Positions 21,196 to 54,663 of a DNA stretch of 64,000 nt are shown here, piece by piece (the first letter of the stretch is position 1; every line of letters begins with the position of its first letter). The stretch covers positions 46,314,001 through 46,378,000 of the forward strand of contig OX597827.1 of the NCBI GenBank assembly GCA_951406725.2. The letters run 5' to 3'. A model generated the notes under the pieces. That model ran no database searches, was not told the DNA's origin, and was given only the letters and a program-made list of their open reading frames with translations. The position numbers and the translations under genes were made by a program. Origin of the DNA: Octopus vulgaris. Its lineage: Eukaryota.

Positions 21196-23215
21196 TAAAA
21201 CCAAGGGGCCACAATAAAAAAGCCTTGGGATGGGTGCTGGTGCCATGTAAAAAGCACTGGTGATGGTGCCACATAAAAAAAGCACCCAGAACATTCTGTA
21301 AAGTGGTTAGTATTAGGAAAGGTATCCAGCTGTAGGAATCAATCCAAGATAAGTTATGGAACCTGGTGCAGCCCCTGGTCTTGTCAGTTTCTGTCCAACT
21401 CATGCAAGCATGGAAAATGGATGTTAAATGTTTATGATGATAATGATGATACATTTTCTAATGAGCATCAAATCTAGCTACACAGCTGAAATTATAGAAC
21501 AGACATGGCCAACCTTTTCTGAGAAGTGGCCTGCTTGAGACATGGCTCATTATCAGATAGGCTGGACTACTTAAATAATTCGTGGTAAGTAGCTTGCTTA
21601 CGAACCACATGGTTCCAGGTTCAGTCCCACTGTGAGGCACCTTGGGCAAGTGTCTTCTACTATAGCCTTGGGCCAACCAAAGCCTTGCGAGTGGATTTGG
21701 TAGATGGATACTGAAAGAAGCCCGTCGTATATATATACATGTATGTATATATACGTATATGTATATGTATGTGTGTGTATATGTTTGTGTGTCTGTGTGT
21801 TTTGTCGTCCCAACATCGCTTGACAACCGATACTGGTGTGTTTACATCCCTGTAACTTAGTAGTTTGGCAAAAGAGACCAATAGAATAAGTACTAGGCTT
21901 ACAAGGAATAAGTCCTGGGGTCGATTTGCTCGACTAAAGGCAGTGCTCCAGCATGGCCGCAGTCAAATGACTGAAACCAGTAAAGAGTATGTGTGTGTGT
22001 CTCAGTATCTTGACATTGTGTGATGTCAATACAGAAGGATCATTTGTTTCCAATCTTCCATGAAAACGTGTCTGGTAATGGGGAAAAATTATCTGCAAAC
22101 AGGTGATGACAGGTGGCAGCAAATTCTTTATAACCCCTGCAAGCATGGAAAAATAGACATAGAAAGTAGGAGGAGGAGATGGAGGATGATGATGATAGTG
22201 ATGATGATAATGATGATGATGATGATGATGATGATGATGACGACGACAACGATGATGACAATGATGGTGAGTTTATGGTGATGATAATGATGACGATTAT
22301 GACAATGATGATGATGATTACGATGATAAGTTTATAGTGATGATGGTGAAGATGATGAGTTTATTGTGATGATGATAAGGATGATGAGTTTATGGTGATG
22401 ATGGTGGTGATGGTGATGATGATGACGCTGATGATGAGTTTATGGTGATGATGATGATGATGATGACACCAAGTAGCATTGAACTCGATAAAATACCTAT
22501 GCCTAGTGTTTCTCTGAAGAGAAAGGAAGAGCATCCATGATATAAGAAAGTGAAGAGCCTTTAAGTAGAAATTAGAGAAAAAAATGGGAACGCAGGCTTG
22601 TTGTTCTCAGCTCTCCAAGAGCTTACCTTTGTATTAAAATAAGATTAGAATATGGAAATATGTTAATTGTAATAAATTATAATAATTTTCTGCACAGGTG
22701 CCAGTGTGGCTGTGTGGTAAAAAGTTTGCTTCTCAACCACATGGTTTAAGGTTCAGTCCCACTACATCGCATCTTAGGCAAATATTTTCTATGATAGCCA
22801 CCTTGGGCTGACAAAATCCTTGTGAGTCAATTTGGCTGATGAAAACTGAAAGAAGCTTGTAGTATTTATATATATGTAAGCATATATCTATATGCGTGCA
22901 TGTGTGTGTGCTTGTGCTTGTTCCCCAACACCACCACCACAATAAATAAGAGAGAGAGAGAGAGAGATCACATGACCAGTGACTGGAGGATTATCAGGTT
23001 CTTATCAGCTCTAAGGTTTCTGAAGATGCATGCTCTCATTTAGATGCAAACACATACTGACAGGCTCATGCAGTTACTAAATATCTGAAAGAAATGTCTG
23101 CATAATATTTCCATGTTGTTACCTTCTTATATATAATTTATCTATCTATCTATCTATCTATATATATATATATATATATATTTATCAAAAGAAAAACAGG
23201 ATGCAAAGGATTTAG

Positions 23216-23300
23216 CGGTACATATGTTTCTGGCTTTATTGAACAATTTATATCAATGCATAATTGATATAACATGTAGGTCAACAGCCTTCTTCAGCCG
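23216..23300 (-). ncRNA. type I hammerhead ribozyme motif, slightly degenerate
   Basis: minus strand: cgg-CTGAAGA-aggct..agcca-GAA-ACATATGT-A-ccg; A.A mismatch at base of stem II. Confidence 0.6.
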
Positions 23301-51659: not shown

Positions 51660-51865
51660 CAGTAATCCCTCAACTATCGTGGGTGTTACGTTCCGAAGCC
51701 TCCTACAGAAACAATTAAAACCTAAAAAAATATAAATACCTATCGGCCGCAGAAACCCGTGATATACTGAGGAGTCCGTGATATAAATTTACATATATTA
51801 GCCAGAAAAATCCGCGATGTACTGAGGGCACGGTAGGTGAACCGCGATATGGCGAGAGATTACTG
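51660..51865. mobile_element. pogo/Tigger-like MITE
   Basis: TA-cagtaatccctc ... gagagattactg-TA; related copy at 20995-21195. Confidence 0.75.
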
Positions 51866-54663
51866 TATATATGTACGCACACACACACAGTGAATATGTG
51901 CCGAGACATGGATGTCTTACTTAAATAGGATGGAACCAACACAATTGCCTCTGCCAATCACACTTTACTGTCTATAAAAGAAAAATTATCAACAACACAT
52001 TTGCTAATTTAACCTTAAATCTTAATTTAGAATTAAAAATTAATTTAGATTTATGTGCACTATGTCTGGATAACAAAATAAATTTAGACTTAAATACACT
52101 ATGTCTAGATAATAAATGGGATGTTCGTGGCTGGAATGTCTTTTATCGTGAGTACAAGATTGTACAATGGCGAACGTAGAGACATATAAATGTTAAGCGT
52201 AGAGACATACAAACTGTTCAGCGTGGAGACATACAACTGTTCAGCGAATAAACAATTTAGTGACACCATCTGCATGATAAACGATAGTTAAGTTCGTGTT
52301 AACACATTAAATGCACGTTAAATTACCATTTACTTTACATTAAATCGGATTTATTATTTTTCTTATTTTATATCCTTTGTCTGGAAATCTTTCGTCATAC
52401 GTCCTGTGAACTCTTCATGTCTTCTCCTGTAGTGTCTAGTCCATTTAGAATGGATTAGAATGGACAGAACAGAACAGCAGGAGACACGTGGGATGGAGAG
52501 TCGCTGACGAGGTCACAAGATATATGACGAGAGATTTCCAGGCACATTAAATCACCATTTACTTGGTGATTCTTTCATCGCCACTTGAAGTCTATTATTC
52601 ACTGATAAGGGAATAATCGTTTCTACTTTAAACACGAGGACTGAAATTTATAAGAAGGGTGGGGCTAGCTGATTACATAGACCCCAGTGTTCAACTGGTA
52701 TTTATTTTATCGACCCGAAAGGAAAAAAGACAGAATTTGTATTCAGAACGAAAGGCTCCTAAGCATTTTGCCTGGCGCACTAGCGACTCTGCTGACTCAC
52801 CGCCTTCTTATGAGGTGATAATAAGACCGAAACATGTCCAGTGTTATCTTCCCTTCTTTGCTGAGATATATAATATTAGTCATTGACTAATATTATTTTG
52901 TTCTCTTTCTTATTTCTTCGCTTTTAAATGTTTATTTTATGATATATGTTAACACTAACTTGACTGTTGTTATTCAAGCGGGTGGCGTGTCTGAGTTAAT
53001 TCATTCTCTGAAACACTGTTGACTTACCGTCATGTGGAAGAGCCACTCGGACAGGAATGGAGTAACCGCTCTCAACCATGTTACTTAACATGTCTCGTTC
53101 TATTTGCTTATTGTCGACTTTATTTGCATCTATGCCTGCTGTGGCCCCTGGAGGGGAAGAAACGAGGGCCAAAGGGCCAGAAATTAAAACTTAAGGCATT
53201 AGATTAAGCATTAAGAAACTCCAAGGCACACGTCATAACGAAATAAATTTTGATTTTAGCATCGTTTAAATCGCAGGAAAAAATCTCTCCTAAAATACGC
53301 CTCCCCCCCCCACACGCACAAACACTCTAAAAACACACTTTCACATTTTGTGAATGCAACCACAAGCTTGCACATACGTAAACACATACATACACACTCA
53401 AAGACACAAGCGCGCGCGCGCACACACACACAGTACGCACTAACTTTTAAGGCAAATTTCAAATGGCCTCAAGAGACGCAAAGAAGGGCCAAATGAATCA
53501 GTGCTTAATACATTTTCTATTGCATGCAACAAATGAGAGATATATCTCCACTTATCTCATTTCCGGGATAGGACGCTAGGGCATCGAACATAACATTCCC
53601 AGTGAGCTTCCTCTATGCACAAATAGAAACTCTAAAATGAAGTGTTGTTATTGATGTTCTGTAACTCTAGATTAACTCTGATCGAGTCTATCTATTGGTA
53701 AAGACATTCCAGCCGTAACCATCCATGCTCTTTTTTCTGTAGTGGGAACCCAAGACTTAGTAGGGCATCCACGCAGCCCTCTTCCTCCTCTCTCTCAACT
53801 CATCCTGTCTCTCACTTCTTCCTCTCCCTATCTCCTCCTCCCTCTCTCTACTCTTCACGTTCCCCCCTCTCTTCTCCTTTCTCTCTCCCCTCTTTCTTCT
53901 CTATCCTCTTTTTCCACTCCTCTTTCTCCCTTCTCTCCTCCTCTTTCTTCTTTCTCCTTTCTCCTCCACTCCCTCCTCTCTTTCCTCTCTCTTTCTCTTC
54001 TCTTACCCTCTTCCATTCTCTCCTATTCCTCTCCTGGTGCTACAGTCGATCGTGCATGTCCATGACTGCTTTCTAGGTTATTCAACCATCATCACTTTGC
54101 AGGCCGCCCTTTGGAGACGTGGGTATACATAATCACGAAGGCTATTTACAAGTTAGCTAGATTTTCACAAATTACTAGCGACACTGTCTCGGGGACAGCG
54201 TAATGCTTTGAATGTTCAACGAAATGATTGCAGTAAATTTAAAGTGAAAATTTACGAGCTGGTTGCTGAATTTAAATTCTATTCACATGCAGCAATGATA
54301 ACCATCATGCACATAGACATATGCAAATAAAATAATGATACCCCACCGCACACACACACACACACATACACACACACACACATACATACACACACACACA
54401 TACATGCATACACACACCACAATGATAAATTATCACACACATGCACATACACCAACAAAACAATGATAATCACGCGATAAGATCTCGCACCTATATTTTA
54501 CATCGTGTATCCGAAAAAGATAAACTCCGTTTATTCTTTCATTATGTAGATTTAATGTCATGGCTCCAAATTATTAAGTGGTATATATATTCATATACAT
54601 AAAACACACACACACACACACACACACACACACACACACACACACACATAAAACGACACTTAC

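Follow-up and report, generated by a model that had tools for sequence, protein, structure and literature searches.

The window, the whole 64,000-nt stretch of Octopus vulgaris DNA analyzed here, contains four loci which a first-pass annotation had described as outward-facing inverted duplications, and in all of them the same element end is present twice, joined 5'-to-5'. As read from the sequence, such insertions probably arise when reverse transcription (RT) is primed separately from each nicked strand of a (TA)n target, at two fixed sites of the element RNA. In these insertions the arms are truncated at unrelated 5' points and belong to one subfamily haplotype, and one end is plain, the other tailed.

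Four loci, four families

The four loci belong to four separate families, A to D. Locus 3 is a 5'-truncated copy of family A, a very young RT/GIY-YIG Penelope-like element (PLE), and is made up of the following features.

46523..46603, no strand: (TA)n target, left part
46600..48458, minus strand: left arm, spanning element positions 2759-4614 of the family A PLE, its plain end (no tail) adjoining the left (TA)n
46722..46766, minus strand: mirror copy of the predicted hammerhead motif
48459..48582, plus strand: 124-nt loop, which codes for RT and extends the right arm
48460..50494, plus strand: right arm with loop and tail, covering approximately positions 2632-4668 of the family A PLE
48468..49754, plus strand: open frame, 428 aa, with C-terminal RT part, CX4CxxC linker and GIY-YIG endonuclease
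50274..50318, plus strand: predicted minimal type I hammerhead, core CUGAUGC, 6-bp stem II, minimal stem III
50441..50494, plus strand: PLE tail, 54 nt, encoding part of the ORF start, right arm only
50495..50610, no strand: (TA)n target, right part

The arms, 1858 bp each and separated by 124 nt, differ by one substitution and two simple-repeat indels; the locus is asymmetric, the 54 nt at 50441-50494 being extra on the right arm. The 428-aa frame corresponds to the 3' third of the 1309-aa family A ORF, and open frames of 1309-1312 aa are found in at least 10 copies. In Pfam searches the window fragment of this ORF matched RVT_1 (E 0.014) and GIY-YIG (E 0.0012), both below the cut-off, and the full ORF had no match at E 0.01. 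YVDD, DKSG and GIY-YIG-like motifs are read directly in the translation, and these motifs and the weak Pfam matches indicate a single ORF combining RT with a C-terminal GIY-YIG endonuclease, as in EN+ PLEs. The endonuclease is of the CCHH type, its GIY and YIG equivalents being separated by a stretch that contains two Cys, with His residues downstream, and is preceded by a CX4CxxC linker, within the CX2-5CxxC pattern of Neptune/Nematis. Naiad identity was ruled out by the C-terminal position of the endonuclease; Naiad elements have an N-terminal GIY-YIG and are devoid of a canonical hammerhead. Further EN+ PLE features are a partial tandem forming the pLTR, an optional one-sided tail and an inverted 5'-truncated copy. 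An N-rich insert sits before the RT. The family is abundant (1367 exact motif matches), and at least 98 places are 99-100% identical over 427 aa.

Locus 2 is a member of family B, a non-coding 583-bp tandem hammerhead unit.

36269..36360, no strand: (TA)n left flank
36358..36880, minus strand: left arm, unit position 342 round to 281, loop 36763-36877 included
36548..36638, minus strand: mirror copy of the predicted family B hammerhead
36878..37280, plus strand: right arm, running from unit position 459 past the unit end to 277
37002..37092, plus strand: predicted type I hammerhead, 60-nt stem II region, palindromic loop 3
37279..37361, no strand: (TA)n right flank

Family B arrays reach at least six 583-bp units, with a type I hammerhead motif in each. 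A tblastn search of 39 family B loci with the family A ORF gave one match (L021, residues 1-31), lying outside the B arms. The family is, on this evidence, apparently non-coding with no PLE ORF attached, though a distant partner could have escaped tblastn.

Locus 1 appears to be a short PLE-type end, of family C.

23139-23186: left flank, TATC/TA
23177..23328, minus strand: left arm, family C plain end, complete hammerhead motif at 23215-23301, 29-nt loop 23300-23328
23329..23407, plus strand: right arm, hammerhead 5' half followed, after an internal deletion of ~92 nt, by the greater part of the family C tail
23408..23434, no strand: (TA)n right flank

The inverted match spans only ~25 nt here, the GAAA half of the right-arm hammerhead being gone within the ~92-nt loss. 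Family C has the two alternative ends, TA flanks and a tail of ~70-90 nt; a PLE ORF was sought in the loci examined and none was found.

Locus 4 belongs to the old family D.

52351..52545, no strand: decayed head-to-head pair of pLTR ends, outer ends gone

Its matching pieces (52378-52417 and 52505-52544) are 82.5% alike over 40 nt, and both hammerhead cores are damaged, one having GAGA for GAAA, the other lacking C3. Families D and A share the same ORF start and are 71-80% alike in pLTR and tail, features by which D appears to be an older sister of A; family D pairs are old and diverged, with arm identities of 69-85%. In the surroundings, the EGF-repeat exons of a host gene on the minus strand stop at 56.4 kb, and a further exon was sought and not found. 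Among the sequencing runs listed as containing the sequence, none is from RNA, a result with no bearing on expression.

The hammerheads of the four loci were identified by hand and are predicted minimal or long-stem-II type I motifs. None of them matched in an Rfam scan at E<=1, whose only output was miRNA matches in simple repeats plus, at 51082-51123, a Hammerhead_1 match below threshold; a strict type I descriptor matched once, at 32745, and at none of the four loci. Folding z-scores are only -1.2 to -1.6 at loci 1-3, and locus 4 gave none. As in the described motif (PMC4209133), the predicted family A hammerhead shows both stems, I and II, and a bulge preceding G10.1, but its position 9 carries C instead of A. 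A PLE origin with predicted hammerheads in the pLTR, as annotated at the outset, is supported. The hammerheads point outward only because they are located near the element 3' end.

Geometry of the insertions genome-wide

Orientation was counted on the first 100 exact motif matches listed per family, scoring opposite-strand neighbours within 10 kb for family A and, by hand, within 5 kb for families B-D. Among the matches listed, divergent and convergent pairs number 30:0 in A, 13:0 in B, 11:1 in C and 1:0 in D, a total of 55 to 1, and the uniformly divergent orientation anticipated from the window holds for these matches. One further convergent family B pair, 9.9 kb apart, falls beyond the 5-kb limit. 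TA runs border loci 1-3 on both sides, and likewise 61/66 scored family A insertions, in agreement with the (TA)n targeting first suggested.

Arm lengths and ends were read in two samples sharing 5 two-armed loci. The family A set is made of 91 stretches plus the window copy, minus 4 duplicates (L049, L091, L128, L129), in all 88, and is biased to arms of at least 2 kb; the C1 positional sample uses 66 of 67 clusters, with arm starts read by eye. A single arm is found in 13/66 C1 insertions. Differences in arm length range from 0 to more than 3 kb, with medians of 436 and 2027 bp in the two samples. The loop, believed at first to be unique DNA, is element sequence, namely the extra 5' part of the longer arm, which is the right one at locus 3 and the left one at loci 1 and 2. 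Of the loop lengths initially given, 121 and 124 bp, the 124 nt of locus 3 stand, while the locus 2 spacer measures 115 nt (117 in element coordinates). The expected peak near 120 bp is not seen: loops of 100-150 bp occur at 2/73 and 1/46 loci, vs. 1.05 and 2.85 expected by permutation, and the ~120-bp loop common to loci 2 and 3 is a coincidence.

The two ends of an insertion are nearly always complementary, one plain and one tailed. This was found in 69/73 two-armed insertions of the family A set (one of the others is tail/tail, three have an arm lacking a scoreable end), in 46/46 of the C1 sample and in 15/15 family C pairs. In family B, the tail of which is ~105 nt long, ends are complementary in 13/22 pairs and non-standard or cut in 8/22; locus 2, with a plain end on both arms, is an exception. 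Retrozyme-like family B thus appears, from its ends, to carry the same two-end signature as PLEs, in keeping with the earlier suggestion that non-coding hammerhead derivatives take the same route. Single-armed copies stop at either site (5 tailed, 4 plain, 1 other).

The tail resides on the shorter arm in 29/67 loci of the family A set and 21/38 of the C1 sample, corresponding to 48/100 distinct loci. Each arm therefore has sequence that the other lacks, and neither copies the other. In L173, L029 and L193 one arm is nearly the tail alone. Once exact palindromes are excluded, arm starts are uncorrelated (rho 0.15, P 0.37, n 38). Exact palindromes themselves exceed expectation, 8/46 vs. 1.3 in the C1 sample and 3/73 vs. 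0.14 in the family A set, and the spacer is 0-2 nt in 9/11 near-perfect palindromes.

The joints, at which microhomology had been proposed as a check, feature overlaps of 1-6 nt or short inserts, and over 47 joints the overlap averages 2.3 nt vs. 0.66 simulated. Among inserts of at least 5 nt, 11/17 echo sequence within 60 nt, a count made without a control. Arms of one insertion disagree at 6/733 polymorphic-site comparisons, vs. 19% between loci. Origin of the arms from two different source copies is ruled out by this common haplotype, which could stem equally well from a shared RNA, copying, gene conversion or assembly polishing.

Proposed double-ended target priming and the rival explanations

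In double-ended target priming a GIY-YIG/RT protein, probably dimeric and bound to a single transcript, would cut both target strands, and two antisense cDNAs would be made, each stopping independently. Host end joining would link the cDNA 3' ends via microhomology, each cDNA being then filled in against the other, and the loop would represent the length difference between the two. Exact palindromes would form where synthesis of either cDNA continues to an identical RNA 5' terminus, which would often be a predicted start site ~30 nt past a TATA-like box. L1 twin priming likewise uses the two target strands as primers on a single RNA, with microhomology joining the cDNAs; there the second primer anneals internally, producing an inversion without duplication, whereas in octopus PLEs the second priming would occur at a fixed site 54 nt away, so that the inverted sequence is also duplicated. 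At L118 and L167 the second arm meets (TA)n at an internal element position, as in twin priming. Harder to reconcile with the proposal are the two plain ends of locus 2, the 13/66 single-armed C1 insertions, the 8/22 family B pairs with irregular ends, and the excess of exact palindromes, which fold-back predicts as well. A coupled form of double-ended target priming is somewhat favored: one RNP would use each RT start site once, one per target strand; the head-to-head, one-tail pair would be the normal product; and the same machinery would paste non-coding, retrozyme-like circles or tandems having their own pair of start sites ~105 nt apart. A two-ended priming model for PLEs was not found in the open-access literature, the accessible part of PMC9977147, which holds nothing on inversions, included.

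An unlikely alternative is that a single cDNA turns back on itself close to its terminus, forming a palindrome that is perfect or has a short loop, the final loop being set by an off-centre deletion, joined by microhomology, during or after integration. Either arm could then be the longer one, and the excess of exact palindromes, the common haplotype and the microhomology would all be accounted for. Yet small asymmetries are not in excess (7 vs. 5.7 at 6-250 bp; 11 vs. 12.2 at 7-250 bp), 15/17 loci with no arm differences over at least 400 bp are already asymmetric by 472-3411 bp, and asymmetry does not rise with divergence (rho 0.09, n 57). A hairpin loop has a minimum of 3 nt, and the 0-2 nt spacers of near-perfect palindromes are therefore too tight for fold-back priming. 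Separate reasons would be needed for a recopy halting exactly 54 nt early, and for single arms stopping at either site. The snap-back initially proposed, by which a truncated antisense strand folds over a short loop and recopies to the 3' end, is close to the self-priming on an antisense template suggested in the available text of Arkhipova et al. 2013 (PMC3846280). It yields head-to-head geometry and identical arms, and locus 3 by itself, where a single arm carries both the loop and the tail, would fit it. Since the longer arm has to be the template, the tail should never be on the shorter arm only, as it is in 48/100 loci and at locus 1; moreover, loop medians are 436 and 2027 bp and the 120-bp peak is absent. 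The recopying claim is thereby contradicted, the ends differing by a fixed tail, and as a general route snap-back is improbable; it could make a minority of insertions with a native central palindrome, e.g. L090.

As little credit is given to a free double-stranded palindromic intermediate, which the element endonuclease would cut in a staggered way, once at the plain and once at the tailed site, before its integration. Such cutting would pair the two ends, and Craig et al. 2021 (PMC8557442), in the text available, attribute the tail to endonuclease resolution of an intermediate; but a symmetric intermediate should leave like ends on both sides, independent arm lengths stay unexplained, and both ends were later mapped in vitro to RT start sites (PMC11167929). 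It is highly improbable that the palindromes result from fold-back chimeras among the long reads or from misassembly. The same text warns that such structures trouble assemblies, and among the matches listed no independent contig, from four short-read runs, spans the locus 3 joint. Artefacts, however, would not halt, in more than 100 loci, at one recurring pair of element positions bordered by (TA)n, nor always fold on the 5' side, nor give the arms different ends, nor persist in pairs as old and diverged as those of family D.

Relation to known elements and significance

The head-to-head layout is already published (Craig 2021, Arkhipova 2013) and, as structure, is ordinary for PLEs. Canonical EN+ PLEs, as presented in the accessible text of Craig et al. 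2021 (PMC8557442), share with the octopus elements 5'-truncation, pLTR-forming partial tandems, a second, inverted and 5'-truncated copy at the 5' end, a tail confined to one end, a pLTR hammerhead (predicted in octopus), and a (TA)n preference tied to the CX2-5CxxC linker. Their tails measure 30-40 nt, vs. 54 in family A, ~70-90 in C and ~105 in B. Arm-length and end-pairing statistics, counted here, are absent from that text, in which the formation of PLE inverted repeats and tails is called unresolved. For the Penelope families of Adineta vaga, the portion available of Arkhipova et al. 2013 (PMC3846280) describes head-to-head inverted pLTRs with an optional single-pLTR tail, palindromes at the joint, other DNA between pLTRs, and an asparagine-rich insert bringing the ORF to about 1300 aa, all features shared with the octopus elements. 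In octopus family A, by contrast, the N-rich insert is located before the RT and the family is abundant; the tail on shorter arms argues, in octopus, against self-priming of the kind inferred for A. vaga.

The Poseidon element PAc of Anolis (Frangieh et al. 2024, PMC11167929) cleaves and extends both target strands in vitro, from two RT start sites within the ORF start which bound the tail; start sites did not differ between the strands, a point that does not favor the proposed route. The AT-rich target, predicted dimer, two strands and two start sites resemble the route proposed for octopus; inverted insertions and one-to-one pairing of sites are not addressed there, and the clade is likely different. 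Family B resembles metazoan non-LTR retrozymes (Cervera and de la Pena 2020, PMC7229834) in consisting of tandem repeats that lack coding capacity and have one type I hammerhead motif per unit. It differs by a 583-nt monomer with a long stem II, outside the range of ~170-400 nt given for invertebrate circles in the text available. PLEs have been proposed as retrozyme mobilisers (PMC7229834; Li et al. 2026, preprint 10.64898/2026.07.22.740005), and the PLE two-end signature borne by family B insertions is not used as evidence in the accessible parts of either source.

Octopus family A is a test bed for PLE integration, being young, with intact 1309-aa ORFs and strict (TA)n targeting, and its insertions discriminate between models. 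Double-ended priming, if true, joins the in vitro findings of two strands, two start sites and a dimer to the genomic layout, and in its coupled form would replace the self-priming model. The family B pattern, if true, would tie the spread of retrozymes to PLE enzymes and supply direct genomic evidence for an animal retrozyme mobiliser. Hundreds of near-perfect kilobase palindromes may also bear on genome stability and dsRNA load.

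Hammerhead insertions of the window

Self-comparison of the window confirmed the inverted arms of locus 3 (46600-48458 and 48583-50440, spacer 124 nt). The arms of locus 2 (36362-36762 and 36878-37280) are also inverted, but their spacer is 115 nt, not 121 as first reported; those of loci 1 and 4 (23.3 and 52.4-52.5 kb) are present but weaker. (TA)n surrounds loci 1-3, as the first-pass annotation had it. Outward-reading hammerheads, ascribed there to all four loci, are both whole at loci 2 and 3, whole in one arm at locus 1, and in neither at locus 4. These are predicted minimal or long-stem-II type I motifs assigned by hand, an Rfam scan and a strict descriptor giving no match to the hammerheads of the four loci; such motifs have been reported for Penelope-like elements (PLEs; PMC4209133). 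The lone strict-descriptor match (32745-32793) and a sub-threshold Rfam hammerhead match (51082-51123) are both probably due to chance. A separate fold-back (46240-46525, 77% arm identity, no hammerhead seen) adjoins the (TA)n to the left of locus 3, and is either MITE-like or an old palindrome. Other features of the window are:

10804-12162, minus strand: C2H2 zinc-finger open frame, 452 aa, about 15 fingers
56397-63713, minus strand: MEGF-type gene, seven EGF-like exons; further exons downstream of these were looked for and not found
3634-3885, 15841-16254, 25071-25481, 34195-34446, 61718-62034: first abundant SINE-like repeat family
4222-4643, 21582-21990, 26007-26407, 29425-29879, 44449-44830: second abundant SINE-like repeat family
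27144-28257 and 33689-34102: broken LINE-like frames

Families, geometry and loop length

Genome-wide searches covered the 2.8-Gb assembly containing the window. Locus 3 represents the 3' portion of an RT/GIY-YIG element (family A). A protein search gave at least 98 genomic matches of 99-100% identity, and in several of them the open frame spans 1310-1312 aa. A natural full copy, in the genomic stretch L048, is built of a 4588-bp unit repeated in partial tandem; it carries an N-rich insert and a CX4CxxC linker, and its hammerhead lies 135 nt upstream of the ORF start. The insert, long, Asn/Ser/Gly-rich and preceding the RT (L048 5065-9003; frame open in many copies), resembles the N-rich inserts of Adineta PLEs; family A itself is highly active. 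An exact 34-nt family A motif, located downstream of the predicted hammerhead core (50280-50286), has 1367 matches genome-wide. The core has C at position 9, where family D, an older sister family of A represented by the decayed pair of locus 4, has A. At locus 2 the tandem unit is 583 bp long and non-coding (family B, 248 exact matches); locus 1 is a short end carrying its own tail (family C, 214 matches).

The divergent geometry recurs genome-wide and is non-random: among the first 100 matches listed per family, opposite-strand neighbours form 55 divergent pairs and one convergent pair. The sole close convergent pair in the tallies (family C, G000:C4:11277839 and 11278099) had only one arm aligned; another family C pair hosts a centrally inserted LINE-type RT (L242 1605-3050). 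A directly joined inverted arm was found in 73 of 88 family A insertions in a set biased to long arms, and in 46 of 66 sampled by position on contig C1, the remaining 20 being single-armed (13), having arms separated by other DNA (2) or an inverted piece without element end (3), or ambiguous (2). TA runs occur on both sides in 61 of 66 family A insertions scored for their flanks. Inverted second arms without element end occur in L118 (7148), L167 (3278), L162 (4990) and L150, two of them adjoining (TA)n at internal element positions and resembling classical twin priming. L137 (4438-5045) contains a rearranged second mirror of a family A insertion, 3 kb from it; the palindrome may have seeded this as an inverted duplication.

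The loop is the longer arm's additional 5' sequence. Arm lengths differ by a median of 2027 bp (biased set) or 436 bp (positional set), and the proposed loop peak near 120 bp disappears: differences of 100-150 bp occur in 2 of 73 and 1 of 46 insertions (1.05 and 2.85 expected). The 115- and 124-nt spacers of the window are a coincidence. The sole excess is at 0-6 bp (3 vs. 0.14 expected in the biased set, 8 vs. 1.3 in the positional one).

Ends, joints and origin of the arms

Family A arms terminate at position 4614 (plain end) or 4668 (54-nt tail), and insertions pair one of each in 69/73 (biased set) and 46/46 (positional set) cases. Pairing is the same in family C (15/15; in two of these the plain end falls about 22 nt short). 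Family B ends lie at unit positions 277-287 and 384-391, paired one of each in 13 of 22; the other pairs are the window copy, with two plain ends, and eight with a non-standard or cut end. The tail resides on the longer or the shorter arm in 38 vs. 29 insertions of the biased set, 17 vs. 21 of the positional set (P 0.63), and 52 vs. 48 once the sets are pooled and shared loci removed. Where it is on the shorter arm, as at locus 1 and not at locus 3, each arm has sequence absent from the other, so that neither was copied from its partner. Snap-back of a truncated cDNA, the route first proposed, consequently fails as a general one, 48 of 100 loci being of this type, and in its plain form is quite improbable; resolution of a free intermediate ranks no higher. 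Both are weaker than the main rival, fold-back followed by loss of the centre, itself unlikely: in 9 of 11 near-perfect palindromes the spacer measures 0-2 nt, and even the youngest pairs show the full asymmetry. An artefact is the least credible reading by far.

Arms of one insertion are discordant at 6/733 subfamily-diagnostic sites, vs. 19% between loci, and hence come from one source. Arm starts are concentrated at 4385-4398, roughly 30 nt past a TATA-like hexamer (4357), a position predicted as a likely transcription start. In L048 (3705) the two arms terminate no more than 2 nt apart though one is longer by a whole unit, which suggests that priming took place on different units of a single tandem RNA. 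Among 73 joints, 26 carry inserts and 47 are blunt or overlapping; overlap in the latter averages 2.3 nt (0.66 simulated), and reaches at least 3 nt in 17 (6% expected). At the locus 3 joint no overlap is evident, and 1 nt is deleted next to it.

We favour, as probable, a route in which each nicked target strand would prime reverse transcription at one of two start sites on a single RNA, the two products would truncate independently, and end joining would then link them. In a lizard PLE both target strands are cut and extended, and two start sites bound the tail, a dimer being predicted (PMC11167929); the coupling of two-strand to two-site priming we infer here. In PLEs, an inverted 5'-truncated copy, a one-sided tail and (TA)n bias were reported by Craig 2021 (PMC8557442), and head-to-head pLTRs, explained by self-priming, by Arkhipova 2013 (PMC3846280); no statement of double-ended priming for PLEs was found in the literature searched.

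In a read-through transcript the antisense arm would be made before the sense hammerhead, and the predicted ribozyme would therefore likely be trapped in duplex. The phenomenon is real, recurrent and non-random, and of a kind already known; its value lies in a large, young data set arguing for a different, testable mechanism. Also of interest is the same two-end signature on the retrozyme-like family B, PLEs having been proposed to mobilise retrozymes (Cervera 2020, PMC7229834; 2026 preprint, 10.64898/2026.07.22.740005).
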